Positions 14,234 through 30,433 of a stretch of DNA of 50,852 bases are shown one piece after another (position 1 is the stretch's first letter; each line of letters opens with the position of its first letter). The notes beneath the pieces were generated by a model. It had not been told where the DNA came from. It saw nothing but the letters and a program-made list of their open reading frames with translations, and made no database searches. The translations under genes and the position numbers were made by a program. The stretch is from Candidatus Thorarchaeota archaeon (GTDB lineage: Archaea; Asgardarchaeota; Thorarchaeia; Thorarchaeales; Thorarchaeaceae). The stretch covers positions 1-50,852 of the forward strand of contig JBHLRP010000022.1 in the NCBI GenBank assembly GCA_048882485.1. The letters are read 5' to 3'.

Positions 14234-14766
14234 CTGCTTTTTCTGCCTCCCACAGTAGGGATTGCTAATTCCCTTACTGCTACCATCTATCGTGGACAAA
14301 CTATGTGATGTGTTATTGGCCAGCCTTTGATTGGAAACAAGACCTGTGCTTGAATCGTTTTTGTCGGCTATGAACGCTACCGAGAATGGTTTATTGTGAA
14401 ATAGCGGCTCTATTTTACGAACGGGGCAATATGAGAGGATTTACGTTTGCTAAATTGTGGAAACCTGCAACCATGGCAGATCGAAAGGTGCGGTTTATTC
14501 CAGCTTGTTCAAAACACCTTTTCTGGCAATCACATTCAGCGAAAGTATTCAGGCAATACAGTTAACATGCATAAATGTCACAAAAGGGCTTTGATAAAAC
14601 AGCAATAAGGTGCTTTTTGGGAACAAAGGGGCTCTTAAATCGTCTATTTCTCTTTGGGAAGAGTTTTCAACCCTCTGGTTTCTGCGCTTCGCAGATATGA
14701 AGGTTAAGCTGTCAATGAAGGAATCGCTTTGAACCAATTTGCAGTTGGTTTTGTTAGGGTGTTGAT

Positions 14767-15519
14767 GTGATGATCACACAACTTCAAGAGCAGCTGTCAA
14801 TTGCATGTGAGAAGAAAAGCAGAGGCCTAGTCGAGGTGACTTTGCCACTGCAGGTCATGTTCAATAATCGAGACTGGAACATCGTCAAAGCACGGATTAG
14901 ATACACCGGCCCTGAGCGTGATGCTTGGCTCATCTTAATCGTCGGCCTTCGCAGTGATATTCTGTCGACATTTGATCGTTTTGAGGAGGACATTCCAGGC
15001 AGATACTTACCTTGTGATCTTCTTGGTCTTGTACCAGCTATCTCTCTCATGGCATCCTCATATAACAAGGGGCTAGCCGTGAGCGCGATTGCCCGAGATG
15101 ATGTCACCCGCCTGATCCTAGTGTTTGAGGGACAATCGAATAGAAGTGGCGGGTCTCTCAGGACTCTATCTACTTCCATCTGCAACTTCATGAAGAAGTG
15201 GGAGTCTTGGGTTGACGTACTGCTAGGGACGCTGAAGAGGGATCCGGTTATAGGTGATTGGAACACAGACATCCGAGAGTTTCTGGCCGGCGAGTCGGGC
15301 TATATTACGATGCCTTGGCACACTCCTATGTCTTATGCTGATCGCGCAGCATGCTTGGAGAGGATTGTTCTCGCATCAAATGCTCTGATGAGTTCAGTTC
15401 TTGGCAATGGTCAGCTGGTCGACCCGATGGTTGTTGGCTTGAGAGAGTGGCTGAATGAACTGAGAGCACTCCCCGAGGTTGTCAGCGGAATTAAGGTTGG
15501 AGAGGAGGTTCCGATATAA
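14767..15519 (+). CDS. Hypothetical protein, first gene of the recombination/membrane operon
   Basis: 250-aa ORF; TAATG coupling to the next gene, with GAGGAGGT RBS inside its 3' end. Confidence 0.75.
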   Translation: MMITQLQEQLSIACEKKSRGLVEVTLPLQVMFNNRDWNIVKARIRYTGPERDAWLILIVGLRSDILSTFDRFEEDIPGRYLPCDLLGLVPAISLMASSYNKGLAVSAIARDDVTRLILVFEGQSNRSGGSLRTLSTSICNFMKKWESWVDVLLGTLKRDPVIGDWNTDIREFLAGESGYITMPWHTPMSYADRAACLERIVLASNALMSSVLGNGQLVDPMVVGLREWLNELRALPEVVSGIKVGEEVPI

Positions 15520-15986
15520 TGCTTACAGATGAAGTACTGAAGAGGCATGCAATTTCTCCTGTGGACTTGCCCAGTGCGGCTTGGCTTGCGGGAGCTGCTG
15601 CAGGACTGGAGGTCAATAGTCATAGGAGTCCGCAGTGGTTGTGGGAGCCGTTTATTGAGGACTTGTTGGACCTATTGGTTCATCATGGCAATATTGAGCC
15701 AGCCGAACCGGGCACAAGCCCCAAGTTTGGTGATGGTGCAATAGGGTCTGCATATGATGCGTTGGGAGGGTATGTATCTATCAGTGGTGAATTCTGTCCT
15801 GAAGGTCTCTACTTCAAAGTGCCATTGAAGCGACAGGAAGCAGTGGCTAGATTGCTATCACCCAGTCATGCTTACATTTCTAGCGGTGAGATAGTGATTC
15901 CACCCCATGAGATTCCAGCGTTTCTCAGACTAGTCCCGATTCATGGTCCATTATCTGACACAATCGTTGAGGAGGCGTTGGTATGA
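15519..15986 (+). CDS. Hypothetical protein (possible degenerate LAGLIDADG-like fold)
   Basis: 155-aa ORF coupled on both sides (TAATG, ATGA); the family guess is weak. Confidence 0.7.
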   Translation: MLTDEVLKRHAISPVDLPSAAWLAGAAAGLEVNSHRSPQWLWEPFIEDLLDLLVHHGNIEPAEPGTSPKFGDGAIGSAYDALGGYVSISGEFCPEGLYFKVPLKRQEAVARLLSPSHAYISSGEIVIPPHEIPAFLRLVPIHGPLSDTIVEEALV

Positions 15987-17050
15987 CTGAGTTGGAAGGA
16001 GTGACTGGTGTTGGACCTGCTGCGGCAAAGAAGCTGAGGGAGGCATTTGTTACAACAGCTGAGTTGCTGGCAGTTCAGAATCCTGTTGAGCTGCAAAAGA
16101 AAACAAAGCTCGGGGAAGGCACTGTTGAAAAAATCATTCGAAACGCCAGAATCCTCCTGGGCATGCATGGCTTCAAGTCTGGCCTTGAGGTGGAGAAAGA
16201 GATGGAGTCCAAGTCCCGCCTCAAGACGGGCATTGAGAAAATGGACGAAGCACTCTTTGGAGGAATCGAAGTTGGCTCTATCGTTGAGTGTTATGGCCCT
16301 GCAAGAGGTGGGAAGACGCAATTTAGTGCGCATTTGGCAGTCCGTGCACAACTCCCGAGAGACCAAGGGGGCCTTGAAGGCAGAGTATTGTGGTTGGACA
16401 GCGAGTCATCATTCAAGCCCTATACTATCAGAGCCAATGCCATTCGATGGGGTCTTGATCCTGACATTACATTAGGCAATATAGGACGTGCAGAGGTCTT
16501 CCTCTCTGATCAGATTCAGGAGATATTCGAGTCCATTCCCCAACTCTGCAGCGAGCAAGACTATGTCTTGGTTGTCATTGACTCATTCACCGGGCTCTTC
16601 CGTGCGGAGTACACAGGTCTCGAATCCCTGAGAATCCGTCAGCAGGAGATGAATGCGCTTTTAAACCAAATGAGAAGGACCGCGAAGGCCACGGACGCTA
16701 TCTTTGTCTACACGAATCAAGTGATGTCTAAGATAAGCACCTACGGGGGGTATGATAATGCTCCAATAGGTGGCCATATACTCTCTCATGCTAGTGATTA
16801 CAGATTCTACACACGTAGGACAAAGGACGACAAACGAAAGCTACAACTGATAGACAATGCAGGGCTTCCTGAGTTCGATGTAGAGATGGTTGTGGGTTGG
16901 GGTGGAATGTATCCAGACTCAAAGAGCAAGAAGGAGAGCGAACCAGAGATTCTCGACTACTTTGAGAAACAGGGCGTCACTGAAGAGGAGACTGAGATTG
17001 AACTCGAGGAGGCTGAGGCGCCGCAGGCTAAGGCAGGTGAAGCTGGGTGA
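15983..17050 (+). CDS. radA: Full-length RadA/Rad51-like recombinase (divergent paralog)
   Basis: N-terminal HhH domain (GVGPAAAKKLREA), Walker A GPARGGKT, Walker B LVVIDS, FRAEY..G...RQQ, TNQV, PIGGHILSHA, acidic tail. Confidence 0.9.
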   Translation: MTELEGVTGVGPAAAKKLREAFVTTAELLAVQNPVELQKKTKLGEGTVEKIIRNARILLGMHGFKSGLEVEKEMESKSRLKTGIEKMDEALFGGIEVGSIVECYGPARGGKTQFSAHLAVRAQLPRDQGGLEGRVLWLDSESSFKPYTIRANAIRWGLDPDITLGNIGRAEVFLSDQIQEIFESIPQLCSEQDYVLVVIDSFTGLFRAEYTGLESLRIRQQEMNALLNQMRRTAKATDAIFVYTNQVMSKISTYGGYDNAPIGGHILSHASDYRFYTRRTKDDKRKLQLIDNAGLPEFDVEMVVGWGGMYPDSKSKKESEPEILDYFEKQGVTEEETEIELEEAEAPQAKAGEAG

Positions 17051-17490
17051 CCTCGGAGCGAGGAATGTTCAGAGTCTACCAGTGCCCCAGTTGCACCAAC
17101 ATAGGATACACAGCTGTCGAGAATGAGCAAGAGGAGTCAAGATGCAGCCTATGCAGGAGTCTGATTCTTCATGCACCTGGAACAATCTATGCAGTTACGA
17201 TTCAAGAAGCCCAAGCGAGTGTCCGTGAGCTTGTGATAGAATTGCGCCAGAATGCCAAACCCCGAGGGGGAGGGAGAGGCTTGGGCATTAAAAGGCGTGT
17301 CTACTATATCGTTGAAGCGCTAGTTGACCTCAACAGAGGGCGACCAGTTTCGATTGAAGATGTCATGAGAGAATGCAGCGATGCAGGCATCGATATCTCA
17401 CGTGCAATGACGTTCCTTGACTCCCTCGTTTCAGAGGGCGAGGTAATCAAGAACGGTGTGCTAGTCACCATTCCAATGGAGGCGTGGTAG
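17047..17490 (+). CDS. Zinc-ribbon plus winged-helix protein
   Basis: CPSC...CSLC at the N-terminus; C-terminal GRPVSIEDVMREC..AGI.....FLDSLVSEGEVI wHTH pattern; GTGA overlap with radA. Confidence 0.8.
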   Translation: MTSERGMFRVYQCPSCTNIGYTAVENEQEESRCSLCRSLILHAPGTIYAVTIQEAQASVRELVIELRQNAKPRGGGRGLGIKRRVYYIVEALVDLNRGRPVSIEDVMRECSDAGIDISRAMTFLDSLVSEGEVIKNGVLVTIPMEAW

Positions 17491-18117
17491 TTGACGGGTA
17501 TCGAGTCAGAGAGCAACTACGTCTGGGTTCCGCGAGCCCCACCAACTGTCGCAAATAACACAATGATCAATCTCGTGAATCTTCTCATGAGGGAAACGTC
17601 ACATCGAGTGACCGTCCTGGAGAAATGTGTAGGTCCAAATCCTGAGATCTATGTCGTCACTAGAGTCGAATGGAGAACCCCTGACCTCAGTAAACCGGTG
17701 CTGCCGCAACTTCCGAGACTGCTTTCTCTCCTTGAAACATTGAGAGGGACACAGGGAGTCCCTCATGAGATACATCTGGACAGCACTGAGGGAATTGCCG
17801 TCTATCTACCAACAGGAGTGAGAGTATCACAGTTGCCCAGCAAACCAAAGGAGGCAGTGCAATCTCTCACTGACCTAATTGAAAGCTCAGTAAGTCACAT
17901 GTACTCCACTAAGCGAGAGGTTGAAGCTTGGTTCTGGAAGATAGCTCGCCAGAAAGGGTTCAGTCCAGTGATTGTGGAGCGAATGGCAAACAAGGAAATA
18001 GGGTACAAATCGCCTTCATTGATGTGGCAGTTCCATCAGCTTCTGCGGAAGTACTTCTCTCTACGGTTCAGAATCCACACGAGTGAGTCCTGTCTACATC
18101 TGGAGGCTGATTATTGA
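17491..18117 (+). CDS. Hypothetical protein
   Basis: 208-aa ORF whose TTG abuts the previous stop, with GGAGG RBS; TTGA overlap with the next gene. Confidence 0.75.
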   Translation: MTGIESESNYVWVPRAPPTVANNTMINLVNLLMRETSHRVTVLEKCVGPNPEIYVVTRVEWRTPDLSKPVLPQLPRLLSLLETLRGTQGVPHEIHLDSTEGIAVYLPTGVRVSQLPSKPKEAVQSLTDLIESSVSHMYSTKREVEAWFWKIARQKGFSPVIVERMANKEIGYKSPSLMWQFHQLLRKYFSLRFRIHTSESCLHLEADY

Positions 18118-20069
18118 GTACTGCAGTTACTGATCCTCTCGCATGGTTTCCTTATACACCTAGACTGCATCAGGATAAGGCTGTGCGGTTTGCTGCTGAG
18201 GTCTTTTCGTCAAAGACAGTGGGATTGCTGTCTGCCGATTGCGGCGTCGGAAAAACCGTGGCTGTCCTTTCAGGATATCTTGCTGCAAGAGGTAGTGATT
18301 CGAGCTCAAGGTTGGTCGTGCTGACAAGAACTCACAGTCAGTCAAGGGTGTTCGAGATTGAACTTGACGTTCTGAGGGCAATGATGCCTGAACTTACAGC
18401 CACAACGATGGTGTCGAGGATCCATATGTGTCCAATTAGAAGCGAGATTGACTCCGACACCTCTACAGGCTTTATGCGAGCCTGTGCATCGATGATCAAG
18501 ACAGGGCAATGTACGTACTATCACAATGTCTATCGAAAGAACTCCAGCGATGGTCGAAGTGTCATCAGAGATTGGGTTCGAGAACGCGTTGAGGAATTGC
18601 TAAGCACTGGTGTTGTGACACGTGAAAGAGTGGAAGACCTCTGCAGTGCCGAAGGGGTGTGCCCATATGAAGTGATGCGCTGGTGTGCGAGACAGAGCAA
18701 GGTCATTATTGGACCATATAGCTACATGTTCAGGTCAAGGGTACGGGAGGCTCTTCTAACATCATTGGGAATCTCACTCCATGATGCTGACCTACTTGTT
18801 GATGAAGCCCACAACCTGTCAGACCATGCGCTCGACTCGGAAACAGCCAGGCTGAACGGTGAAGACCTCCGATGGCTAAGGGACCACAAATCAGAGATCG
18901 TCAAGGAAACCCGGATAAACTGGATTGGAGAGGCAGTGGACTTTCTTTACGAAACAATGATGCTCAATCTTGATGGGATGAACAGGAGATCAGAGCGTAC
19001 ACTCGCCAAGTGGGATGTGGCTCCGAGATTCATCAAAGAGTCTGATCTGCAGCTCATGCATGAAACTACTAGCCCCAGCATCGGTGATCCTGAGGTGGCT
19101 GTTTCAATGGAGACTCCCCTTGACAGGCTTGTTGAGTTCCTCTTTGTTGCCCAGCTGTCTACCAGAAGTGAAGGGTGGCATGTGACGCTTAACGTGAAAC
19201 GGTCCTGGGATGAAGCATTGACTGCCTCGAAAGCCACGCTAATGATTCGCCCACTAAACGCATCCGGTCTTACTGCACCGGTCCTCAGGGGTGCAAAATC
19301 TGCGCTGTTGATGTCCGGAACTCTGAGACCCCTAGAGCATTATGCAAGGCTATTGGGAGTTGGAGGTGCAATAACAGAGGACTTGGCAAGTCCATATCCG
19401 CGGTCGACTAGGCTAGTGCTCATTGATAGAGAGCTCACAACTAAGTACCAGGCAAGAAGTCCTGATCTCTGGCGTTCACTGGCTGATAGAATAAACACGG
19501 TACTCACAACGGTTCCCGCAAATAAGAGCGCGCTCATTGCATTTCCAAGTTACAAGATTCTTCATGAAGTCTTGAGCTACGGCATTGATTCTGGATATCG
19601 CGGAATACTCATCGAAGAGAGAGGAAACCGCATTGAGACTGTCGCAGAAGCTTTGGAAATTGGCCCTCACGCCATTTTCTGTGTCTTCGGTGGGAAATTC
19701 TCAGAAGGGGTCGATCTAGTGAAAGGCGGCTCTAGTATGATAGACTTGATTATTGGAGTCGGGATTCCCTTCTCCCCTCCTACTAGCTACCAAAGGGCAT
19801 TGCAGGAGTTCTATGATACTCGCTTTGGGGAAGGAGCTGGCTACTATTATGGAGCGTTAGTCCCATCTATTCGTCAGGTTGCCCAAGTTCTTGGTAGACT
19901 AAGGAGGTCACCTGAAGACTGGGGTGTTGTTGTTCTTTTAGACAAGCGCTTTCTCAAGCATGTCCGGGTGTTTGGTGATGATATGGTAGCTGACATCTGG
20001 CCCTTTGGTGATGTTGCTGAACTCAAGGCTGCCATTTCACAGTTCATAGCGTTAAGGGAGGGAAGCTGA
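18114..20069 (+). CDS. XPD/Rad3/DinG-family Fe-S SF2 DNA helicase
   Basis: Q motif FPYTPRLHQ, motif I ADCGVGKT, Ia TRTHSQ, four Fe-S Cys (HMCP, RAC, QCTYY, VCPYE), DEAH, MSGTL, SEGVD, QVLGRLRRS. Confidence 0.93.
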   Translation: MSTAVTDPLAWFPYTPRLHQDKAVRFAAEVFSSKTVGLLSADCGVGKTVAVLSGYLAARGSDSSSRLVVLTRTHSQSRVFEIELDVLRAMMPELTATTMVSRIHMCPIRSEIDSDTSTGFMRACASMIKTGQCTYYHNVYRKNSSDGRSVIRDWVRERVEELLSTGVVTRERVEDLCSAEGVCPYEVMRWCARQSKVIIGPYSYMFRSRVREALLTSLGISLHDADLLVDEAHNLSDHALDSETARLNGEDLRWLRDHKSEIVKETRINWIGEAVDFLYETMMLNLDGMNRRSERTLAKWDVAPRFIKESDLQLMHETTSPSIGDPEVAVSMETPLDRLVEFLFVAQLSTRSEGWHVTLNVKRSWDEALTASKATLMIRPLNASGLTAPVLRGAKSALLMSGTLRPLEHYARLLGVGGAITEDLASPYPRSTRLVLIDRELTTKYQARSPDLWRSLADRINTVLTTVPANKSALIAFPSYKILHEVLSYGIDSGYRGILIEERGNRIETVAEALEIGPHAIFCVFGGKFSEGVDLVKGGSSMIDLIIGVGIPFSPPTSYQRALQEFYDTRFGEGAGYYYGALVPSIRQVAQVLGRLRRSPEDWGVVVLLDKRFLKHVRVFGDDMVADIWPFGDVAELKAAISQFIALREGS

Positions 20070-20672
20070 ATGGCATGGTTCGAGCGATGGGAGATTAGAT
20101 GGATTGGCCTTGGCACATTGATACTTGCTGCGCTTCTGGGGCTTTGGGTGTCCTGGGGCAACATAATGGGGATTTTCCTGTCATCAATCAGCATACTATC
20201 TGCATTACTCTTGGCCCTAAGCTGGAGGAATAGCCAGCTGCCCATTATAATATGGGATGAACAGCGTGGCGTCCTTGCTATTCTATGGTCATTTACACTG
20301 GAGGTCATAGCAGGACGATTGATGACAAGCGTTCCTATTGGCATAGACCTTAGCCATTCAGCATCCAAAGTGCTTCGAGCTCTCCATGCGCGATATGATG
20401 GGAAGAAGAATGGAGAAGTTCGGTTCTTTATCTGCAGACCCACAGGCGATGGCATCACCCGTGCAGGGATGCTTGTTGCGAGAAGAGGCATTCGGTTCAT
20501 AGATGGGATAAAGAAGGCGTCTTCAATCGCAGATGAAATTGTCATTGACGCGGCAGTCCTTGAGAGTTCGATGAGAGCCGCCTATCCTCACATGCCTATT
20601 GATCTAGCAGGGTTGGATGATTTGCTGATGGTGACTTCAGGAGGTGTTGAGCCGTATGCTCAAGTCAGGTGA
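20070..20672 (+). CDS. Hypothetical membrane protein (N-terminal TM hairpin plus soluble domain)
   Basis: Two N-terminal hydrophobic helices; ATG abuts the helicase stop codon. Confidence 0.75.
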   Translation: MAWFERWEIRWIGLGTLILAALLGLWVSWGNIMGIFLSSISILSALLLALSWRNSQLPIIIWDEQRGVLAILWSFTLEVIAGRLMTSVPIGIDLSHSASKVLRALHARYDGKKNGEVRFFICRPTGDGITRAGMLVARRGIRFIDGIKKASSIADEIVIDAAVLESSMRAAYPHMPIDLAGLDDLLMVTSGGVEPYAQVR

Positions 20673-20958
20673 TAGGATAGCTATCGAGCTTCCATTTGGC
20701 GTGACACACGAAGCAGTGATGCATTCGCTTGAGATAGGCCATGGCTATAATTGGCTGGTGCTGACAAAAAGCCCGACGCTCGTTGCTCATGGATCATCAG
20801 ATCTCGGAAACATGCCAGAGATTCTTCTCGTTGGAGAGCATTTGCTCCTCGTGTCGGAATCAGACTTCGTATACGCAGAACGGTTGCAGCGTGTGCTTGA
20901 GATGCTGCGACGCCAGATAAAATCCATTTCAACAGCGGGAGGGACTTCGGTTGGGTAA
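20656..20958 (+). CDS. Small hypothetical protein
   Basis: ATG 20656 follows GGAGGTG RBS; overlaps both neighbours. Confidence 0.7.
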   Translation: MLKSGDRIAIELPFGVTHEAVMHSLEIGHGYNWLVLTKSPTLVAHGSSDLGNMPEILLVGEHLLLVSESDFVYAERLQRVLEMLRRQIKSISTAGGTSVG

Positions 20959-23308
20959 GCGTCTAATTCTCGGTACCGAGCCCGAAGTTGATCCACTAAA
21001 GGAGATCTCTCAACCCAGCATGACTGTGAGTGGTGGGATTGATCTTCAATGGGATGACCGCAGAGTGAAACCATCCCACGGTCGTGATGCAATCACGGCA
21101 ATCACCGTAGCAGTCATTCTCGCGGCACTGCCATGGAGTCTTGCTATGGTTTCCCTCGGAAGTTTCCTTGTTACGATACTAGTCCCCAAACTGAGGACCT
21201 CACAAGAGATTCGCTCCCTAGAAGAATCAGAATGGATTCGTGTTCCTGAGAGCGATACATCCTTTGCAGTGAATGAAGAACACAATGCCGTTCAGTGCAA
21301 AACGGCATCCGGCAATCGCAACGTGATAGGATTGGAGCTGCCATTGGCTGGTCCTCTATTAGTCGGAAATATGAGTGCACTCGTTAGAGCCATCGATAGC
21401 TCAAAGGGATTCTGTCTATCAGTGATAGCAAGAGCCGAAGAATCCTCCTCCATCGTGGAAGAAGAGCGTCTTTCTTCTCGATTGGATGGTTACTTGAACT
21501 ATCTATCAAGCGGTGGATTGGATGCCTATATGACCAGGCGCGGAGGCCTTTGGTCCGTCCGGGTTTCGATTATGGGGCACTCGCAGGATATCAATCAGGT
21601 TCAAAGATTCGAATCATCGATTAAGGCAGCTGTTCCGGATGGAAACTGGTCTAAAATGACGCCCAAATCTTTAGCTTCGAATATGCGGGCGATGAACATG
21701 GCGTTTCGGCTTCCATCATTCTATGCCGCCGGATCCGAACTCTCAGAGTGGTTAATACAGATTCCTAGTGAGCTTGCATCTGAGATTGGATCGAATGTTC
21801 CAGGTGAGTTCCTTGCACCCATAAAGCCCAGAGCAGGAGATTATTACATAGGCCGCGTGATAAATCCAGAAACCCTTCAGCCCGGACCTGCTGCTGGTCT
21901 ATCACACGAGGATATTCGATCCGGACTATTAGTTTGCGGAGGGACCATGGAGGAGCGAAGGCATACGATCACTCTGATTATGAGACAGCTTCTGTCACAT
22001 GGAAAGCGGGTCATTATTGTGAGTAGTGAACCTGATGCCAAGAATTTCGCATCTCTTTCTGAAGGTGCAGTATCATTTGAGCTTGGCAAGGATCTGGTAC
22101 TGAATCCTATGGACGCAGAAGGACTTCCAAGACATATCTATGTGTCCAAATTGATGACTGCTCTAGAGGTAATTGCGGGGACTGACCTTCGCGGTGCAAC
22201 TGACCTTGAACTTGCGATCAATCGTGCCATTGCATTAGGCAACACAACTGTGGCTGACGTTCAACTGACCCAGACACCAGATGTCATGGATACATATTCA
22301 GAGGCAGCAGAACAGAACGAACGAAAGCCATCTGATAGAAGTGTGTCAGGTTATGAAGCAATAAGGTCTCTACACCAAGGAACTGCGGCACGTTCCTTCT
22401 ATGGTTCTCAGACAATCGCTATGCGCGATCTGGCGCAGGCTAGCCTGGGCGTGTTGATTTTATCCCAAGGATATTTGCCAATGGAGAAATTCGCGTTCGA
22501 TCTTGTTTGCATCAAGCTCTCAGGACTCCAACAGGACCAAGATCTCGTTATCATACTCGAGAATGCAGAGAATATGAGAATTCGAAACCGGCGATATATG
22601 AAGAGGGACTCATGGAGTGAGATGATGCTTCGAGATCTGTTGCAAAGAGGTCCCACAATTGTCACGCTGGATCATCCAGTAGACATGTCCCCCGGTGCAA
22701 TTGGCAAATTGAACTCATGCATCACTCATCGACTTCGCGAGAGTCCGGATATTAAGACAGCCGTGGAATTGCTCGGCATCAGTGTCGTTTCGTCAGGCAT
22801 GCATAGTAAAGCCCGTCAATCATCCAGAGAAACATCATACCTGAGAGTAATGCCGGACGGAGTAGTCCTGTTGGTCCGAAACCAGGGCGAAACATGCATG
22901 CCTGTTGAGTTGGATGAAGCGGCCCCTCTTACTGGGCTTCACCCCGAGGAGATGGAGAGACGCATTTCTGATCTCATTCCTCAGGAGTTTCCCACTGAAG
23001 GAATGGCTTTTGGCGATTCACTGATTGATAGAGTCGCTGGAGGACAGAGAAATACAGCCATCAAGATGCTTCGACTGCTTGAGAGGTATGAACCACTGAC
23101 AGAGGAAGCAATGAGGAAATTCCTCCTTTCAGGAGATGGGAATGAGGATCCTGACATCAGTGGAGTACTTGCCAGGCTGGAGAAATCGGGCATGATACTT
23201 AGGGGTCATGAGGTCCATGGAGCGGTTTCGTATACAAACTACCGAATCACCATGAAGGGCAGCATGGCTCTTCATCAAGTTGCACAGAGGGATGAAGCAG
23301 AAAGATGA
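20951..23308 (+). CDS. Membrane-anchored HerA/VirB4/CedB-like protein with degenerate ATPase motifs and C-terminal winged helix
   Basis: N-terminal hydrophobic segment. HerA-like layout: IGRV...LSHEDIRSGLLVCGGTMEERR (Walker A position), LVLNPM, LVIILENAE (Walker B position), TLDHPVDM...LNSCITHRL...D, LRVMPDGVVLL. The C-terminus is wHTH-like (LARLEKSGMI...YRITMKG). Confidence 0.7.
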   Translation: MGKRLILGTEPEVDPLKEISQPSMTVSGGIDLQWDDRRVKPSHGRDAITAITVAVILAALPWSLAMVSLGSFLVTILVPKLRTSQEIRSLEESEWIRVPESDTSFAVNEEHNAVQCKTASGNRNVIGLELPLAGPLLVGNMSALVRAIDSSKGFCLSVIARAEESSSIVEEERLSSRLDGYLNYLSSGGLDAYMTRRGGLWSVRVSIMGHSQDINQVQRFESSIKAAVPDGNWSKMTPKSLASNMRAMNMAFRLPSFYAAGSELSEWLIQIPSELASEIGSNVPGEFLAPIKPRAGDYYIGRVINPETLQPGPAAGLSHEDIRSGLLVCGGTMEERRHTITLIMRQLLSHGKRVIIVSSEPDAKNFASLSEGAVSFELGKDLVLNPMDAEGLPRHIYVSKLMTALEVIAGTDLRGATDLELAINRAIALGNTTVADVQLTQTPDVMDTYSEAAEQNERKPSDRSVSGYEAIRSLHQGTAARSFYGSQTIAMRDLAQASLGVLILSQGYLPMEKFAFDLVCIKLSGLQQDQDLVIILENAENMRIRNRRYMKRDSWSEMMLRDLLQRGPTIVTLDHPVDMSPGAIGKLNSCITHRLRESPDIKTAVELLGISVVSSGMHSKARQSSRETSYLRVMPDGVVLLVRNQGETCMPVELDEAAPLTGLHPEEMERRISDLIPQEFPTEGMAFGDSLIDRVAGGQRNTAIKMLRLLERYEPLTEEAMRKFLLSGDGNEDPDISGVLARLEKSGMILRGHEVHGAVSYTNYRITMKGSMALHQVAQRDEAER

Positions 23309-25512
23309 CGGTTGTAGCTGATGTTCAGGAACAGGTGCATAGGCTTCTCCATCAGCTGGGTATTAAACCGAGAGGGATCCAGAAAACTTCGATTGAACGG
23401 GGCCTTCTGGATGGCGCAAGCATTTTGGTCTGCAGTCCAACTGGCTCTGGCAAGACATTGGTAGGTGAGATGGCTCTCCTTAGAGCAGCACTGACTGGAA
23501 AGAAGGGAATCTATCTAGTCCCTCTGAAGGCTCTCGCCGTGCAGGTGTCTGGAATTCTGATAGATAGGTATGAGCCTCTGGGCTTACGAATTGGTGTGAG
23601 TACAGGGGACTTTTCGAATGATGGTGAGAGTCTTTCGGACTATGATGTCATTGTGACAACATACGAGAAGGCGGATTCTTTGCTAAGACGAAAGACAGCC
23701 TGGCTCAATTCTATTGGCTCTCTAGTCATAGATGAGATTCAGACAATTTCTGATTCTGGAAGGGGTGCCCGTCTTGAATCCATTATAATCAGGTTTAAGC
23801 GAATGGTTGACGGCTTTCAGTTGATTGGGCTTTCAGCAACGGTTGGCTCACCAGATGAGCTGGCTGAGTGGCTTGGCTGTACTCTTGTTGAATCAGAAGA
23901 TCGTCCTGTGCCCTTGGTCTATCGTGTTATTCCTTCAAAACACAGGGAGCGAGTTCTTCGCCAACTGGTTATGACAACAGTGCAAGGCGATGGCCAGGCA
24001 ATTGTCTTTCATCGGACGAGACGCGAAGCTGAATCACAGGCTATACGTCTTTCAGGGGATGTTGGACGGCATTTCACTAGAATTGAAAAGGAAGATCTCG
24101 ACACAGAGCTTGAGTCAGTTGAGAATTGGAATGTCACTATACCGTCCGAACTCAGAACTCTTCTTCATGATGGCACAGCTTTTCATCATGCGGGTCTGGG
24201 AAATCGGGCTCGGCGGCTTGTTGAGGATTTATTTCTCCGGGGCAAAGTTCGAGTGATCTGCGCCACTACAACACTGGCGGCAGGGATGGACCTCCCCGCG
24301 AGGACAGTTGTTCTTACTAATGTGCGGTCTCCGGGAAATCACCGAGAAATGCTTCCTGCTAACTCCATTCATCAAATGCTAGGTCGAGCTGGTCGGCCTG
24401 GCTATGATACGACCGGGTTCGGGATTATTCTAGCTGGAAGCTCCGGAGAAGCTAAAGATGTTGAAAAGAGATACTTTCTTTCGTCATTGGATAATGAGTC
24501 GTCGACAAAAATCCTCTTTCCAAAATATGATCGTGTGATTAGCAAACTCGGCGAGTCAGCAACACTGACTGAGCAACTGCTCGTTGCACTTGATGCTTTG
24601 AATGAAGCAACCTTGGAAGACATTGCAGACGGTTTTCTGGGCGATTCCTACCTAGTGTTCACTGGAATAAGAGATACAAACTCTCCCATGCGAGTTATTC
24701 AGTTGGGTGATATAAGTGCGGAATCTGCAATCGAGAAGCATGCCTTATCAGACACTGTGCGTCCAGCTCGTCAAGGGCTCCTGGGGAGCATTAGCCTTAG
24801 GGAAACAAATGACAGTGTTATTGGTGGCATCGTAGCAGCATGGGAGGAAGGACACTATACCTGTAGGTATTCGGCCCGTCTTTCTGCTGATGGTGTTGTG
24901 GAGGGTCCGCAGTGCTCATGCTCTAGACCTATTGATAGGAATGGAGTTCTATGTTCTCACTTGGTTGCCCTGGGGCTGTATGCAGCAAGAGAGCTAGGCA
25001 GCCTTGCAGACTATGTAATTCCAGTCGCGCTGAGCGAGCTAAGTCCAAGTGAACTTCTCGTCAGGCTGGGCCTTATCGAGGGTGGAATAGAAGGAAAGAT
25101 GAAGCCTACACGATTGGGGCGGATTGTAAACCGGCTTTATCTCAGCATTCCAACAATTCGTGAGCTACTGGCAGTACTTCCAAAAATCGAGGAGAGCACA
25201 ACACTGCTATGGCTCTTGAAGCATCTGGTTTCAATCGAATCGGGGACTTCACTTGAGGATTCTTTCGAACATCTTATCGCTGCTGCAGCCACAACAGACA
25301 TTCCTCTCGAGGAGTTGGCCCGGAGTTCAGGATTTCATTTGGGTGATGCTTATGGACTACTGGAAGCCGCTCATTGGTTGCTTTACGCAATAGTTGCTGT
25401 GGCAGAGGTGGGGGGTTTGAAACAGCCAATGGCTGTTTCGCAGAGGTTGATGGAGGGACTAGAAACAAGACTTGCAGGAAGCAGGAAACAAGATTTTGGA
25501 GGCGCAAAATGA
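23305..25512 (+). CDS. Hel308/Ski2-like SF2 helicase with inserted SWIM zinc finger
   Basis: PRGIQ, SPTGSGKT, PLKALA, TYEKADS, IDEIQ, LSAT, RPVPL, FHHAGL, TTTLAAGMDLPA, QMLGRAGRPG; CSC-x10-CSH at 24913-24960. Confidence 0.92.
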   Translation: MTVVADVQEQVHRLLHQLGIKPRGIQKTSIERGLLDGASILVCSPTGSGKTLVGEMALLRAALTGKKGIYLVPLKALAVQVSGILIDRYEPLGLRIGVSTGDFSNDGESLSDYDVIVTTYEKADSLLRRKTAWLNSIGSLVIDEIQTISDSGRGARLESIIIRFKRMVDGFQLIGLSATVGSPDELAEWLGCTLVESEDRPVPLVYRVIPSKHRERVLRQLVMTTVQGDGQAIVFHRTRREAESQAIRLSGDVGRHFTRIEKEDLDTELESVENWNVTIPSELRTLLHDGTAFHHAGLGNRARRLVEDLFLRGKVRVICATTTLAAGMDLPARTVVLTNVRSPGNHREMLPANSIHQMLGRAGRPGYDTTGFGIILAGSSGEAKDVEKRYFLSSLDNESSTKILFPKYDRVISKLGESATLTEQLLVALDALNEATLEDIADGFLGDSYLVFTGIRDTNSPMRVIQLGDISAESAIEKHALSDTVRPARQGLLGSISLRETNDSVIGGIVAAWEEGHYTCRYSARLSADGVVEGPQCSCSRPIDRNGVLCSHLVALGLYAARELGSLADYVIPVALSELSPSELLVRLGLIEGGIEGKMKPTRLGRIVNRLYLSIPTIRELLAVLPKIEESTTLLWLLKHLVSIESGTSLEDSFEHLIAAAATTDIPLEELARSSGFHLGDAYGLLEAAHWLLYAIVAVAEVGGLKQPMAVSQRLMEGLETRLAGSRKQDFGGAK

Positions 25513-25513
25513 A

Positions 25514-27124
25514 ATGGCTATATCAAGTCGCGAAGGTCCACGTTCCGATGTGGGTGTTGGGGATGAAACTGAGGAGCCAAGTGGCGATCTTATTAGTGCT
25601 CTGAGAGCTTCGGGCCATTCTACTTGTGAATATCCAAACGGGCTAGTTAGTGCTGTTCGTTTGGAATCTATCCCTGGAACACGAGGTGTCCATGTGGAAG
25701 TTGTTCATGTTCTGGACTTGAGGACTGCTCGCTTCGGCAAAAGCGGGCTGGCTATGAGAGCCGCCCTCTTGGAGAGCGTCAATCGGGAGTTCGAAACTGT
25801 CTTACATGATGTTGGATTGGGAGATTATCTTGAACGAAGCGAGCTGAAGACTCCTCTTAATACTGTGTCACTACATATGCTACGAGGAAGCAAAGGCAGG
25901 AAGGCTTCATTGATTCATCCGACCAGAACAGTCTATGTTGTGACTAGGAATGTGAAGCCTACCATGGATCTGTCTTGGCTAACAGATTCAGGAAGACTGG
26001 TGACCATTGAGGAATTTGCTCTTGCGCGAAGAAGTGATGCGCGATCATTCTTGCCTGAAATCAAACATGCAGTGAGTCAGAAGAAGTGGTCTTCCTTGGA
26101 GCGTAGCATAAAGAGAGGATGGCTTGGAGTATTGGCTTTGGCTGCGTGTCTAATTGCAGTTGGTTCTACAGTCATTACCCAGCTTTCAATATCTGGCTCA
26201 ACTCTCCCATCAGTACTTACAGTGGTAGTGTCACTACTGACAGGTCTCTGGCTGCTTTCTAGTTCTACCAGCAATTTGAAGGAATTTGAGAATTCGGTAC
26301 GAGAAGAAGATGCGGTTCTCTCAACCCTTGGAGATTCGGCAAGAATTCAGCAATCCATAGAGTCCAACGAGGATAATCTTCGCCTACTAGGCGACATCAG
26401 CTTTGTTGTATCACCCCTTATGGCAAGTCTCGCAAACACCATCGAAGCTGGCTCTCTTCAAGAATCTATAGAAACCGCTTGTACAATACTGGATGAGTGT
26501 GTGCGGATGGCTCCCCTCAGGATTCAGGAAAAGAATTCCAAGGGAGCTGGAGATGAAGGTCTAGCACGATTTCTTGGCCTATTCGATGCTCTTGGAGTTC
26601 AAGTGGAAAAGGAATCACTTGCACTATCATACGTTGCGCTCACAGCTCACATCACGTCGCCTCTCAGTTTCGAGGATATGATACAGCATGTGGGTAGTCT
26701 GAGCTATGCCCTGTATAATGCTGGAGTTCTTCGACCTGACATAAAGGACATGGTTGATGACAAGGTCAACAATCGAGCAATGAAGAGGACGATTGACGCC
26801 ATTGATAAATCATTAGCTGAACCTGGCGAGCTCCATGCAGAACTACCATCAAGAACAGCAACCACCGAAAGACCAGAAGAAGACGATTCATCAAACGAGG
26901 AGGAGCTCGACCCGAATCTCCTCGATGCTATGTTGCACTCAACACTGAAAACTCAAGTTAATGAAATCCCAATAATAGCGGCTGAAGCAATAGATGAAAC
27001 CACACCAGAGGAAGAGATTCCCACTGGGGCAGATATTGTTGCTGCGAGCAATGCAGGTAAGGAGCCATCAAAGCTTGTTCAGGCTTCCCTATTCGACTTT
27101 GAGGAGGGAAGCTCTTCTGGTTAG
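25514..27124 (+). CDS. Hypothetical membrane protein (central 2-TM hairpin, acidic disordered tail, C-terminal PIP-box-like motif)
   Basis: ATG 25514 follows GGAGG; two hydrophobic helices mid-protein; ends ...VQASLFDFEEGSSSG. Confidence 0.75.
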   Translation: MAISSREGPRSDVGVGDETEEPSGDLISALRASGHSTCEYPNGLVSAVRLESIPGTRGVHVEVVHVLDLRTARFGKSGLAMRAALLESVNREFETVLHDVGLGDYLERSELKTPLNTVSLHMLRGSKGRKASLIHPTRTVYVVTRNVKPTMDLSWLTDSGRLVTIEEFALARRSDARSFLPEIKHAVSQKKWSSLERSIKRGWLGVLALAACLIAVGSTVITQLSISGSTLPSVLTVVVSLLTGLWLLSSSTSNLKEFENSVREEDAVLSTLGDSARIQQSIESNEDNLRLLGDISFVVSPLMASLANTIEAGSLQESIETACTILDECVRMAPLRIQEKNSKGAGDEGLARFLGLFDALGVQVEKESLALSYVALTAHITSPLSFEDMIQHVGSLSYALYNAGVLRPDIKDMVDDKVNNRAMKRTIDAIDKSLAEPGELHAELPSRTATTERPEEDDSSNEEELDPNLLDAMLHSTLKTQVNEIPIIAAEAIDETTPEEEIPTGADIVAASNAGKEPSKLVQASLFDFEEGSSSG

Positions 27125-27803
27125 CGAATACAGCCTTCGAACATCATTGAAGCTCGGAGGTATTATCCATTTCATAGGACCTGCAGGATCCGGCAAGACG
27201 TTGCTAGCGGCGACTATCGCGGCAGATGCATCTCGGACATCTCACGTGGAATGGATAAATGCTGACTCAAAGAAACGGTTCATACCTCATCTGAAGGCAA
27301 CAGTCAAGCATCTCAGGGGGGTGGAGAGTAACGTGTCTGTTATGATGACGAAAGGTCACAAACAGACATTGGATGCTTTGTTAAAATTGAGAACTACGAT
27401 AACACCAGACACGTCTCTAATTGTCATTGACCCTATTACAAGGGTGCTTGACATGTCAAGAAATGATCCCATCCTTTGGGGGCGATTACTAATAGAAGAG
27501 GCACTGCCCACACTAGGAGCATTATCTTGGGAAAGAGGCATAGATATCATTGTTGTAAGTGAGATGAGATTTCTTCATGAGATTGGCAATCATCCAGTGT
27601 TTTCTAATGAAATAGCAAAATGGGCAGATACTACTATCAAGGTTTGCAGGGATATTTCCAGCAAATCGTCATCTGTTTCAATTGTGGAGAATGGTGATGA
27701 TCGCAAAATCGCACAGCTCCGAGTCCTACAAAACGGAGCTTGCCATCTGTCTCTTTCACATCACCGAGGAGTGGTCACGAATTGCTTGGAAGAGGAATTC
27801 TGA
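26994..27803 (+). CDS. RadB/Rad51-paralog-like RecA-fold ATPase without N-terminal HhH domain (true start probably near 27117)
   Basis: Walker A GPAGSGKT, WINADS..F, Walker B LIVIDPIT, IIVVSEMR, KWADTTIKV; GAGGAGG at 27101 suggests a later start. Confidence 0.85.
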   Translation: MKPHQRKRFPLGQILLLRAMQVRSHQSLFRLPYSTLRREALLVSEYSLRTSLKLGGIIHFIGPAGSGKTLLAATIAADASRTSHVEWINADSKKRFIPHLKATVKHLRGVESNVSVMMTKGHKQTLDALLKLRTTITPDTSLIVIDPITRVLDMSRNDPILWGRLLIEEALPTLGALSWERGIDIIVVSEMRFLHEIGNHPVFSNEIAKWADTTIKVCRDISSKSSSVSIVENGDDRKIAQLRVLQNGACHLSLSHHRGVVTNCLEEEF

Positions 27804-28729
27804 AGATTATCGGTTTGGCGATAGCAGGAGCAATGGCTTTAGCGGGTGGTGCCCAGTTGCTCTCATCAGTGGCACTTGTGGTTATTTCCTTCAGAAGCGG
27901 GAATATCATCCCCCTGATCATTGCCATAGGCACAACAGCGGCATTGATTCATCTGAAACGACTATTTACCAAACATGCACTATCTGCAATTCTAGGGATA
28001 CTTGCTTATGCAGCCTCGGGATATCTTGCCGTGGTCGCATTCGTTGGACTGTTGCCTTATGGGATGATTTCATCCCTATTGGGTGCCGCACTAACGATTA
28101 TTGCATGTTCGGTGATGTATGACCCAAGCAACCTGAAAGAATGGATGGCAACATTGTCCCCCGACTCGTCAATATCGTGGCTGAGCAGAGACCCAGGAAC
28201 ACCTGAGTTTTCGATAGGCAAGGAAGTTTCACACCATATTGCACTACTCCCGTCTGAAAGCCGAGAGAAGGTCATCATGCTGATGAGAGACCGACCACTT
28301 CTACCAATTTCACTGACTCACTTCAATGAATGCGACGCGCTCTTCATTGACCTAAAGTCTGAGAGGATAAATTTGAACCAGATCAGAGATGCTCTCTTTA
28401 GAGCAAACGTGGCAATCAAGAATGATGCATCACCACTCTTGCGGGAGGCAATTCTCAAGGTCCCTATTATTGATGAAAAACATGGCCTTTCGATGGCAGA
28501 ATACTGTTTAGCTACTGATCAGGAAACTGTTAATCAGCTAATACGGAATCCCCCTTCACGCATGTTTGTTTTCCCTAGTAGAACCGGTCCCAGAGTCATC
28601 TATCCTGAATCGGCAGCACCAGGTCTAATATCTCAAAGAGTTCCTGAAAGCGAACTTGTCAATGCACTATTGCTTCACAGATATACCACTCTTAAGGAGG
28701 CCAATGACACCTTTGCGAATGCCACTTGA
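27782..28729 (+). CDS. Hypothetical membrane protein (about 4 N-terminal TM helices plus soluble domain)
   Basis: TTG 27782 follows GAGGAG; the first ~110 aa are hydrophobic. Confidence 0.75.
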   Translation: MLGRGILKIIGLAIAGAMALAGGAQLLSSVALVVISFRSGNIIPLIIAIGTTAALIHLKRLFTKHALSAILGILAYAASGYLAVVAFVGLLPYGMISSLLGAALTIIACSVMYDPSNLKEWMATLSPDSSISWLSRDPGTPEFSIGKEVSHHIALLPSESREKVIMLMRDRPLLPISLTHFNECDALFIDLKSERINLNQIRDALFRANVAIKNDASPLLREAILKVPIIDEKHGLSMAEYCLATDQETVNQLIRNPPSRMFVFPSRTGPRVIYPESAAPGLISQRVPESELVNALLLHRYTTLKEANDTFANAT

Positions 28730-29429
28730 TTCACTAAATGTCAATTCACGATCCGAAATCTCGCTTGCCCCGAAGCAACTTGATGACTTGCTAGGAAACA
28801 TTCTTGCACGCGAACAACTAAGCCTCTTTCATGGCCCTGAGCGATCTCCTCTTACGTCTCTCGCCCACGCCATATCAATTGCCGCAGCTGAACTAGGTGA
28901 GGGACATGCGGTCTATATTGATTCAGGGTCAAATTACAGTCCCACTTTAGCTCGAGCAATGTGCAATTCAAAGAGAAGGGTGTCAAAGATACTCAGCCGC
29001 GTTATTGTCGGGAATGTATTGAGTCTTTCAGACTTGGAGAATCTCAGTAAAAGCATTCCAAACTTGGGCCCTGTATCTATAATATTGCTCGACAGCCTGA
29101 CGGGAGTTCTGAATCTTTCTGGAGCTCCAGGAAGTGCAGGGAGGCAAAGAGAGCTCTTTCATTGTCTTGAGGTCTTGAGGGAACTAGTAAATGAGATTGG
29201 AACTCATCTTTTGATGACAGACCATTCTTCAAGAAGCTGGAATTCAGATCAATCTATACCCATTGGTGGTAATGTTCTTGCTCATGCTGTTGATTCTGTA
29301 GTGAGAGTTGATCGACTGGACGTGGGGAAGAATCTGATTCGTATATTGGTCGAGCGCAGCACACTAGGTTCTGAATCGCAAGCATTGATTCTAGTGGAAG
29401 GAAAGAAAGGTCTGCGTACCTTCAGATAG
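28704..29429 (+). CDS. RecA/Rad51-paralog-like protein with degenerate Walker A
   Basis: ATG 28704 follows GGAGG. QLDDLLG, GPERSPLT in place of GxxxxGKT, VYIDSG, ILLDSLT, RQREL, PIGGNVLAHAVD. Confidence 0.85.
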   Translation: MTPLRMPLDSLNVNSRSEISLAPKQLDDLLGNILAREQLSLFHGPERSPLTSLAHAISIAAAELGEGHAVYIDSGSNYSPTLARAMCNSKRRVSKILSRVIVGNVLSLSDLENLSKSIPNLGPVSIILLDSLTGVLNLSGAPGSAGRQRELFHCLEVLRELVNEIGTHLLMTDHSSRSWNSDQSIPIGGNVLAHAVDSVVRVDRLDVGKNLIRILVERSTLGSESQALILVEGKKGLRTFR

Positions 29430-29440
29430 CGGTGATTCCT

Positions 29441-30433
29441 ATGGGTGTGACTGGTTGGAGCAATCTGGTCCCTTGGGCATGGGCCGATGTGAATGAGGTT
29501 ACACCAGGCAATATCGCAATAGACATGCCCAATTATTTGACGCGTCGTGTGAGTGTCATTCCTTCATCAAAACGAGATAGCGGCAGAATTCCCCTTCATC
29601 ACGCTGGAATGACTCTAAGCTTGATAAGAATGTGTCTGAAGAACGCATTACTGCCAGTCCTCATTTTTGATGGTCCACCAGAGCGTATGAAGAGGTCTCC
29701 AAATCCTGAACTCATTCTCACTGCTCAATCCTTCTACAGGCAATTCAAAGAGACTCGGGATCCGTACGATGAGGAGATAGCCAGTCCATTGCGGAAGAGT
29801 CCGTCTCTCAGAATGTACTTCGCTATCGAGCACACACGCGAACTCGCACGCGTTCTAGGTGTGCCTGCAATCTCAGCGCCATCGGAAGCTGAGATGTTTT
29901 CTGCTGTGCTATGCAGAGACAGGCTAGTTAATACAGTCGTTTCAAATGACTCAGATGCGCTTCTATTTGGGAGTCCACATGTAACGAAGCAATTGCAGCT
30001 GTCAAAAAGGCTGATACACAGAGCCACGCTTGCTGATTTGGAAAGCACGACTGGACTTGATCTTGAACAACTAAGAGACCTCGCTGTAGTATGTGGATGC
30101 GATTTTCACAGGCAAGGAGTGAAAGGTATCGGTCCAAGAAAGGGGATGATTCTCCTTCAGCGACATGGAGGGTTGGAAGCATTACTCAAGGCACGAGGGT
30201 ATGGTCCAATTGAACGTAGGGAATTTATGGATGGCAGACAGGCATTCGATGAGGCTAGCTACATTTCTACAAATGGGCTTTTCTTCGATCTAAATCCGCC
30301 ACTAGTCTCGAAGCTTACGGGGATGCTGACTATGTTCATGACGGAGAACCGTGCAGAAGAGATTACGCGTCAGTTTGTTGGATTATGGAGGAAATTTGGC
30401 ACACATCAAGAAACTCTAGAGCAATGGCTCTGA
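29441..30433 (+). CDS. FEN1/XPG-family structure-specific 5' nuclease (divergent) with C-terminal PIP box
   Basis: MGV N-terminus, IAID, IFDG, APSEAE, SNDSDALLFG, GCDF, GVKGIGPRKG (H2TH), terminal QETLEQWL. Confidence 0.9.
   Translation: MGVTGWSNLVPWAWADVNEVTPGNIAIDMPNYLTRRVSVIPSSKRDSGRIPLHHAGMTLSLIRMCLKNALLPVLIFDGPPERMKRSPNPELILTAQSFYRQFKETRDPYDEEIASPLRKSPSLRMYFAIEHTRELARVLGVPAISAPSEAEMFSAVLCRDRLVNTVVSNDSDALLFGSPHVTKQLQLSKRLIHRATLADLESTTGLDLEQLRDLAVVCGCDFHRQGVKGIGPRKGMILLQRHGGLEALLKARGYGPIERREFMDGRQAFDEASYISTNGLFFDLNPPLVSKLTGMLTMFMTENRAEEITRQFVGLWRKFGTHQETLEQWL

Follow-up and report, generated by a model that had tools for sequence, protein, structure and literature searches.

Why should an archaeal chromosome carry a second set of recombination enzymes, interleaved with membrane proteins, when housekeeping copies of these enzymes are already present in the same genome? 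This question is raised by a 15-gene operon at positions 14767-30433 (forward strand) of contig JBHLRP010000022.1, from a Candidatus Thorarchaeota archaeon (assembly GCA_048882485.1); the whole stretch analysed, referred to here as the window, is 50,852 nucleotides long. It had been picked out in an earlier inspection of the letters and translated reading frames (the sequence-only reading) as a candidate machine for DNA import and recombination. The locus is a chromosomal, vertically inherited and translationally coupled operon of Thorarchaeota. Family scans and motif alignments indicate that it carries a second, catalytically intact recombination set, comprising a RadA paralogue, an XPD-type helicase, a SWIM-Hel308-type helicase and a FEN1-type nuclease, alongside a membrane-anchored protein of VirB4 fold that is very probably incapable of ATP hydrolysis. 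The explanation towards which we lean, tentatively and with somewhat less than even confidence, is envelope-linked DNA exchange or uptake coupled to dedicated recombination.

All 15 open reading frames (ORFs; Table 1) lie in one orientation at the coordinates claimed in the sequence-only reading. Their junctions consist of overlaps of 1, 4 or 8 bases, direct abutment or gaps of 1-2 bases, and GGAGG-like motifs precede the majority of starts, in agreement with its description of co-oriented genes that abut or overlap. The choice of start is ambiguous for ORF11 (25472 or 25514), ORF12, ORF13 (27740 or 27782) and ORF14 (28656 or 28704). Inspection by eye of 14300-14766 gave no clear archaeal promoter upstream of the operon. 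The guanine-cytosine (GC) content is even across the window, no tRNA gene was found within it, no capsid gene was seen near the operon, and the flanking genes are metabolic or belong to no known family. A Pfam scan of most flanking ORFs of at least 100 amino acids (a few were left out of the scan) gave no integrase, relaxase or transposase, which is consistent with the chromosomal appearance noted earlier.

The enzymes that had been named from the letters (a RadA paralogue, a zinc-ribbon/winged-helix protein, an XPD helicase, a Hel308-SWIM helicase, two further RecA-fold proteins and a FEN1-like nuclease) were supported by family scans and motif alignments. ORF3 scores about 187 bits against Pfam Rad51 and passes the NF003301 cut-off (267.6 against 259), while falling below that of TIGR02236 (243 against 361); its Walker A motif, GPARGGKT, is conserved in orthologues, and its identity to the canonical copy (contig C45) amounts to 37%. 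The ORF3 orthologues form a separate long-stem clade (ultrafast bootstrap 87, approximate likelihood ratio test 99, on a tree with an unresolved backbone) and appear to constitute a paralogous RadA subfamily. Two RadA clades have been reported in other Asgard lineages, in a 2025 study that did not treat gene context (PMC12722695). In addition, one genus (genome G021; locus L029, 15720-16655) has a second, very divergent RadA-like gene between its ORF1 and ORF3 orthologues, where an ORF2 orthologue went undetected; this gene forms a long branch inside the ORF3 clade.

The C-terminal part of ORF4 has a weak match to the Mcm7 winged helix (E 0.016). ORF6 has an intact Walker A motif and conserved cysteines at positions 106, 124, 133 and 183, the residues of the Fe-S cluster, and is regarded as a divergent XPD paralogue because its TIGR00604 score (162) is below the cut-off of 247. 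ORF10 also keeps Walker A, and Hel308 models align only to its residues ~6-440 (291-347 bits against cut-offs of 887-1216). It has no HhH domain 5 and so departs from the five-domain architecture of Hel308/Hjm, and it carries an insert of about 120 residues with a conserved CxC-x10-CxH motif (C537, C539, C550, H552). The polarities of the two helicases, 5'-3' and 3'-5', are assumed from their families. The two RadB-like proteins differ in their nucleotide-binding sites: ORF12 has a conserved, intact Walker A motif (GxxGSGKT), whereas in ORF14 GPERSPLT replaces the P-loop, with the lysine absent in all orthologues and GGNVLAH retained.

ORF15 is considered a paralogue of FEN1 because its fen_arch score of 118 bits is below the equivalog cut-off of 352; its active-site acidic residues are kept in the FDG, SEAE, NDxD and GCDF motifs. 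The ORF15 tail, QxTLExW (30407-30430), is conserved in the five family-level orthologues aligned and resembles the PCNA-interacting peptide (PIP) box of canonical FEN1. ORF11 has the tail QASLFDF (27080-27100), of which the Q-x-S-L core is semi-conserved and occurs in part of the orthologues. The two tails together suggest PCNA binding.

The sequence-only reading had proposed a check for canonical copies of these genes elsewhere in the genome. Better-scoring copies of all four exist, namely RadA on contig C45 (319 bits against 188 for the operon copy), XPD on C38 (105.9 against 79.9), Hel308 on C21 (619 against 288) and FEN1 on C20 (90.5 against 69.6), and the operon genes are extra paralogues.

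ORF9 had no match in Pfam, NCBIfam or PADLOC-DB 2.0 (the PADLOC scan covered ten operon proteins, ORF1, 2, 4, 5, 7 and 9-13), and all its homologues are annotated as hypothetical. In its AlphaFold2 model, an N-terminal helix that contains a transmembrane (TM) segment leads into an alpha/beta N-domain, followed by a P-loop-NTPase-like core and, at the C-terminus, a winged helix. The modelled core is closest to the VirB4 ATPase domain (4ag5; Z 28.6, root-mean-square deviation 2.7 A over 322 residues), followed by DndH-C and HerA (Z 24.6), TrwB (Z about 21) and FtsK (Z about 16-17), and in structure comparison residues 100-674 align with full-length TrwK/VirB4. A profile search gave only 198 relatives among 1.84 billion cluster representatives, and the few labelled ones belong to Thor-, Loki- and Baldrarchaeota; as far as labelled sequences go, the system thus appears confined to Asgard archaea.

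Predicted hydrophobic helices are present in each of the four ORFs singled out earlier as membrane proteins (at 20070, 20951, 25514 and 27782): two in ORF7, one in ORF9, a central hairpin in ORF11 and four in ORF13. None matches a transporter in Pfam or PADLOC, and they always travel with the DNA enzymes, which sets aside the concern that they might be unrelated transporters or independent neighbours. The motifs of ORF7 are conserved across orthologues, with no Pfam or PADLOC match. The AlphaFold2 model of ORF11, a confident one, has an N-terminal alpha/beta domain, a long helical hairpin with a hydrophobic tip, a helical domain and an acidic tail. Foldseek gave no match for this fold in the Protein Data Bank (PDB) at E <=0.001, the wide VIA-align comparison returned only helical hairpins on residues 187-285, and the ESM Atlas gave no usable match; all 142 homologues (142/142) are hypothetical proteins, with the labelled ones from Thorarchaeota or Promethearchaeota. 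The four soluble proteins of no recognisable family that had been claimed are ORF1, ORF2, ORF5 and ORF8. ORF5 has a weak match to DUF499 (14.4 bits against a cut-off of 23) and is conserved out to the order-level relative described below. Profile searches of the PDB with ORF1, ORF2, ORF5 and ORF11 gave nothing below E 0.08. ORF1, 2, 5, 8 and 11 represent at least five protein families without a known fold or domain, and are new structural targets.

Table 1. Genes of the operon and its neighbours, with positions in the window.
Feature	Position	Strand	Description	Supporting observation
GH3-family adenylating enzyme	12677-14299	-	Divergent left neighbour	GH3 N, M and C domains
ORF1	14767-15519	+	250 aa (amino acids), soluble, no known family	No Pfam or PADLOC match
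ORF2	15519-15986	+	155 aa, soluble, no known family	No Pfam or PADLOC match
ORF3	15983-17050	+	RadA paralogue (HhH, RecA core, conserved C-terminal extension)	Pfam Rad51 and HHH_5
ORF4	17047-17490	+	4-Cys zinc ribbon and winged helix	C13, C16, C33 and C36 invariant
ORF5	17491-18117	+	208 aa, soluble, no known family	No match reaching family cut-off (Pfam, PADLOC, NCBIfam)
ORF6	18114-20069	+	XPD/Rad3-type Fe-S helicase paralogue	DEAD_2, Helicase_C_2, HBB
ORF7	20070-20672	+	N-terminal 2-TM hairpin and ~140-aa soluble domain	TM helices 9-27 and 32-50
ORF8	20644-20958	+	104 aa, soluble, no known family	Orthologues at its position
ORF9	20951-23308	+	VirB4-fold pseudo-ATPase, 785 aa, C-terminal winged helix	AlphaFold2 model, predicted local distance difference test (pLDDT) 78; TM helix 51-69
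ORF10	23305-25512	+	Hel308-like superfamily 2 (SF2) helicase with SWIM-type zinc finger insert	DEAD and Helicase_C
ORF11	25514-27124	+	Membrane protein with central hairpin	AlphaFold2 model, pLDDT 78
ORF12	26994-27803	+	RadB/KaiC-like P-loop ATPase	AAA_25, weak radB match
ORF13	27740-28729	+	4-TM protein and ~200-aa C-terminal soluble domain	TM prediction, orthologue alignment; no Pfam or PADLOC match
ORF14	28656-29429	+	RadB/Rad51-like paralogue, degenerate Walker A	Pfam Rad51 41 bits, radB 55 bits
ORF15	29432-30433	+	FEN1/XPG-family flap nuclease paralogue, PIP-like C-terminus	XPG_I 66 bits, fen_arch full-length
Convergent neighbour	30416-32584	-	722 aa, no Pfam match, no TM helix	Same position in 6 genera
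Polytopic membrane protein	33438-34040	+	~200 aa	Four predicted TM segments (homologue in G025: five)
Giant surface protein	34215-42035	+	2606 aa	Big_1, Filamin, MG2, MG4 and Prenyltrans matches
675-aa gene	42032-44059	-	No Pfam match, no TM helix	Far end of surface module in two of six genera

Of 85 genomes in the GTDB family of this archaeon, 53 have the locus, as detected with ORF9 as the probe; they represent every genus of the family but one. It was also detected in the one order-level relative sampled (genome G025). Submitters had labelled the metagenome-assembled genomes (MAGs) that carry it as Thorarchaeota, Hermodarchaeota or Promethearchaeota. A locus search with the single ORF9 protein matched only four MAGs of the same genus. 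The order of the 15 genes is kept in all eight other family genera sampled, at amino-acid identities of 25-75%, so the synteny among Thorarchaeota relatives on which the sequence-only reading had staked its interpretation is conserved. Orthologues of ORF1 occupy the matching position in 8 genera, ORF2 and ORF8 were each detected at their positions in 6/8, and 8 of the 15 genes are kept in G025. Two genomes (G004 and G355) were rejected as true absences of the locus, as both proved to be assembly breaks.

Relative to four same-genus genomes, the ratio of nonsynonymous to synonymous substitution rates (dN/dS) is 0.02-0.42 for every ORF of the operon, including the small proteins without known family and both degenerate ATPases (e.g., 0.06-0.10 for ORF1, ~0.1 for ORF2, 0.12-0.21 for ORF8, 0.07-0.12 for ORF9 and ~0.2 for ORF14). 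All 15 ORFs are under purifying selection. Within this range, ORF11-ORF14 (25514-29429), which encode two membrane proteins and two RadB-like proteins, evolve clearly faster than ORF1-ORF10, with 78-81% identity as against 88-98% to the same genomes, and dN/dS of 0.15-0.42 as against about 0.02-0.15 (ORF8 to 0.21).

Downstream of the operon, the 722-aa gene, the polytopic membrane protein and the giant surface protein follow in series in 6 genera. The giant protein has a signal peptide, a prenyltransferase-type alpha/alpha toroid, immunoglobulin (Ig)/macroglobulin modules and a C-terminal TM anchor. In G025 the whole locus lies on one strand with genes overlapping or abutting, in the following order: (i) GH3-like gene, two genes without known family, RadA paralogue, zinc-ribbon protein, ORF5 homologue and XPD paralogue, (ii) two small membrane proteins, pseudo-VirB4, SWIM helicase, central-TM protein, 5-TM protein and giant surface protein, and (iii) RadB-like protein, 3-TM protein, RadA-like protein and FEN1-like nuclease. 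The surface module thus sits between the genes at the ORF11 and ORF12 positions, with overlapping stops and starts, and in G025 it is a member of the operon. The Thorarchaeota operon and this two-protein module, polytopic protein plus giant surface protein, are coupled genetically. The joint absence of operon and surface module in three genomes was considered as a sign of coupling and rejected: because the two adjoin, their co-absence is uninformative, and a single unbinned contig would remove both.

The Thorarchaeota operon is the most elaborate version of a core found across the Asgard archaea. In other Asgard families the relatives of ORF9 are about 535 aa long and have no N-terminal part; in genome G149, a TM protein encoded upstream of the ORF9 relative matches the ORF9 N-region (profile comparison, 60% probability, E 8.5e-5). 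A Hel308-like helicase gene lies <=10 kb from the pseudo-VirB4 gene in 9/13 loci from about ten other Asgard families, against a chance adjacency of ~5% per locus calculated from about nine Ski2/Hel308-like genes per 4-Mb genome. All of the helicases that are complete in the fetched loci (7/7) have the SWIM CxC..CxH motif at the same place. Genes for RadA-, RadB- or FEN1-like proteins and for small membrane proteins are often found near this pair of pseudo-VirB4 and SWIM helicase.

Some more distant variants were also observed. In the largest Asgard family sampled (f9), proteins of 1230-1340 aa match the ORF9 core weakly and in two stretches, and look like a third architectural variant of the ORF9 family; in the single locus examined (L048, G302) such a protein lies near a SWIM-Hel308-like helicase. 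Two distant variants of the core, L038 (G149) and L041 (G160), have other membrane or probably extracellular proteins embedded (at L038 5909-8575 and L041 6565-7323); the first of these proteins, 888 aa long, is M28-peptidase-like and has three hydrophobic helices, and the second is a leucine-rich-repeat protein. Profile comparison gave no similarity between ORF11 and the central-hairpin proteins of L038 and L041, or between ORF5 and an L041 protein.

No description of the operon came up in searches of the full-text literature, in keeping with the statement of the sequence-only reading that it knew of no system with this composition. The closest known systems are Ced (Sulfolobales) and Ted (Thermoproteales), domesticated type IV secretion systems which, like the operon, are chromosomal and combine a membrane-associated VirB4-fold protein with small membrane proteins (PMC9905601). 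The purpose proposed for the operon, import of DNA for homologous recombination, is theirs too, and Ted loci, which also carry Rad50 and HerA-like genes, offer a precedent (PMC9905601). ORF9 shares with them the VirB4/CedB fold and the membrane association; however, a VirB4/CedB protein of the Ced/Ted type would be an active ATPase with intact Walker A and B motifs, and ORF9 is without the Walker A lysine. The complete recombination set and the giant Ig/macroglobulin surface protein belong to the operon locus as opposed to Ced/Ted, and sequence similarity between the two is undetectable.

VirB4/TrwK is the best structural match of ORF9, with the N-domain aligned too, and the position of a 2-TM gene (ORF7) two genes upstream of ORF9 recalls the order of VirB3 before VirB4. 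Unlike VirB4/TrwK, ORF9 has no GK[ST], a variable Walker B, a TM helix of its own and a C-terminal winged helix, and no other parts of a type IV secretion system were recognised in the operon. FtsK/SpoIIIE resembles ORF9 in its N-terminal membrane anchor, FtsK-HerA-class core and C-terminal winged helix, although the structural match is weaker, the Walker A lysine is missing from ORF9, and ORF9 has no link to cell-division genes. The archaeal HerA-NurA-Mre11-Rad50 cluster likewise encodes a HerA/FtsK-class fold together with recombination genes. However, the motor HerA is soluble, hexameric and active, in contrast to ORF9 with its membrane anchor and dead ATP site, and HerA ranks below VirB4 as a structural match; no operon ORF matches NurA in Pfam, and Mre11-Rad50 adjoins the operon in this genome and, among five other genera checked, in G024 only.

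Bacterial natural transformation (ComEC, ComFA, DprA, RecA, RadA/Sms) follows the same logic: parts in the membrane work with helicases in the cytoplasm, a recombinase and the proteins that load it. The Pfam and NCBIfam matches of the operon proteins include no Com family, and neither a ComEC-like channel nor a competence pilus was recognised. The eukaryotic network of RAD51 paralogues, SWIM proteins (SWS1/Shu2) and HELQ, compared here by composition and not by orthology, likewise combines a recombinase with two paralogues, one active and one degenerate; both sets also include a SWIM finger, helicases of the Hel308/HELQ and Fe-S types and a nuclease of the XPG/FEN1 family. The operon differs in that it places the SWIM finger inside the helicase itself and links the set to the membrane. 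In PADLOC, ORF10 matched generic helicase models only (HamB, PDC-M23B and BrxH), seven of the other nine scanned proteins had no match, and ORF4 and ORF12 matched weakly at <20 bits, so no catalogued defence signature was recovered. The operon departs from Ced/Ted in the ATPase motif, and it is neither a HerA-NurA-Mre11-Rad50 cluster nor, going by the ten proteins scanned, a catalogued defence system.

DNA exchange or uptake coupled to recombination is favoured for three reasons: the locus is built on a scaffold of conjugation/Ced type, it also encodes a large extracellular protein, and the housekeeping recombination genes are separate. In such a mechanism, the pseudo-VirB4 together with ORF7, ORF11 and ORF13 would build a platform in the membrane that either descends from a type IV secretion or Ced-like DNA conduit or has converged on one, and the giant surface protein would be the part that contacts another cell or external DNA. 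The two helicases would unwind DNA that crosses the envelope or is held at it, and the RadA paralogue would be loaded on that DNA with the aid of the RadB-like pair and the small proteins of no known family. The incoming DNA would then be paired with the chromosome, and the FEN1 paralogue, acting with PCNA, would trim flaps. Energy would be supplied by the helicases and RecA-fold ATPases and not by the VirB4-like protein.

Several findings weigh against exchange or uptake. The Walker A position of ORF9 reads [LIV]CGGxxx[ES]R, without GK[ST], in 32/32 aligned homologues, its Walker B is variable, and G....GK[ST] is absent too from two ORF9 relatives examined in other Asgard families. ORF9 therefore cannot be an import or translocation motor of the CedB type. 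No VirB6/CedA-like channel with 6-7 TM helices, VirB2/CedA1-like pilin, secretin or ComEC-like protein was recognised among the operon proteins by Pfam or PADLOC; ORF13, the channel candidate, has 4 TM helices only, and ORF7, the pilin candidate, is a 2-TM hairpin, yet carries a 140-aa soluble domain. Judged from hydropathy segments rather than a topology prediction, the membrane proteins appear to expose nearly all of their soluble mass on the same side, and such one-sidedness, with few helices, fits a role as anchors no less than one as a conduit. The surface module is seen next to the operon only within a single order, and common descent could account for part of that linkage. Moreover, the locus is missing as assembled in three family genomes of 91-93% completeness, which may mean that the system is dispensable or that its contig was simply unbinned. 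The analogy with Ced and VirB4 drawn in the sequence-only reading gains support from the anchored VirB4 fold and the linked surface module, and fails for the motor. Its broader proposal, that the system handles DNA at the membrane and recombines it, is supported in part; no motor, channel or pilin was recognised.

The same features would suit membrane-tethered genome maintenance, in which nothing crosses the envelope: the cell's own DNA would be repaired or restarted (for instance at double-strand breaks or stalled forks, or by gene conversion from one chromosome copy to another), and the pseudo-VirB4 ring and winged helix would only hold it. In its favour, every enzyme comes from a family of repair or recombination proteins and retains its motifs, the nuclease ends in a PIP-like tail and the VirB4-like protein is dead as an ATPase; the soluble domains appear one-sided from hydropathy, and no channel-like protein was recognised with Pfam or PADLOC. 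Nevertheless, this explanation accounts neither for a giant extracellular protein and its polytopic partner, which lie inside the operon in G025 and adjoin it in 6 genera, nor for a scaffold of the secretion/conjugation type that is nearer to VirB4 than to HerA, and housekeeping copies of all four enzymes are already present. We regard it as unlikely. A defensive role, in which a membrane-anchored sensor would pass invading viral or plasmid DNA to the helicases and nuclease for destruction, by a logic like that of Zorya or Hachiman, is judged slightly less probable still. The matches of ORF10 to HamB, PDC-M23B and BrxH may be cited for it, although they amount to generic SF2 similarity and the other nine scanned proteins had no convincing PADLOC match. 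The mixture of membrane proteins, helicases and nuclease does resemble membrane-linked defence systems, and ORF11-ORF14 evolve faster than ORF1-ORF10. However, the neighbours are identical in every genus sampled, unlike the turnover of defence islands, and point to vertical inheritance; the ORF9 family is small (198 of 1.84 billion cluster representatives) with all labelled members from Asgard archaea, and the combination of one strand-exchange protein and two mediator-like paralogues is not known from defence systems.

Far less probable is an origin as an integrated conjugative element or virus, of which the operon would be a domesticated or decaying residue whose transfer and replication genes have no cellular role. 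Its support is that VirB4-fold proteins are hallmarks of conjugative elements and that the ATPase motifs of ORF9 have been lost. Nevertheless, no integrase, relaxase, transposase, capsid or tRNA gene was seen nearby, the GC content is uniform, the flanks are identical across genera, and dN/dS is 0.02-0.4 in all 15 genes, the dead ATPases included. The conservation data largely refute this explanation.

A bolder extension of DNA exchange and uptake is that the locus encodes an Asgard apparatus for cell-cell DNA exchange and recombination, a regulated 'proto-sex' among the prokaryotes most closely related to eukaryotes, whose enzyme set would be a counterpart or forerunner of the eukaryotic RAD51-paralogue/SWIM/HELQ network; we hold this to be unlikely. 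If it were true, the surface protein would make contact, the VirB4-derived platform would receive DNA and the private enzyme set would integrate it, with a reduced form in many Asgard archaea. As a concrete, conserved and testable candidate, the locus bears on how Asgard archaea exchange and recombine DNA, and on where eukaryotic sex and the RAD51-mediator machinery came from. Should its role prove to be repair or defence, the multi-protein system would still be new, and it would add a seldom-seen example of a secretion-type ATPase that is catalytically dead, yet conserved, and serves as a scaffold.

Other genes were noted around the operon and its housekeeping counterparts. The GH3 gene adjoins the operon in every genus whose locus extends far enough, and in G025 it lies directly upstream on the same strand. 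A functional link of GH3 to the system is possible, and its membership is uncertain. In another Asgard family (G029), a GH3 homologue lies within about 6 kb of an ORF9 relative (GH3 sites: L031 17446-18291, L047 824-2128). About 3 kb upstream of the operon, 9386-11751 on the reverse strand encodes a short Rad50-like ATPase of 429 aa (SMC_N, AAA_23, SbcC Walker B) together with a 359-aa phosphoesterase resembling Mre11. This mini Mre11-Rad50 pair was rejected as a part of the system, being adjacent in 1/5 other genera checked (G024). Finally, near the canonical XPD gene (G000:C38:14471-17632; loci L003 and L009), at a distance of ~2 kb and in the same orientation, lies the gene of a short RadA/RadB-like paralogue, and the two may be a separate small helicase-paralogue pair.

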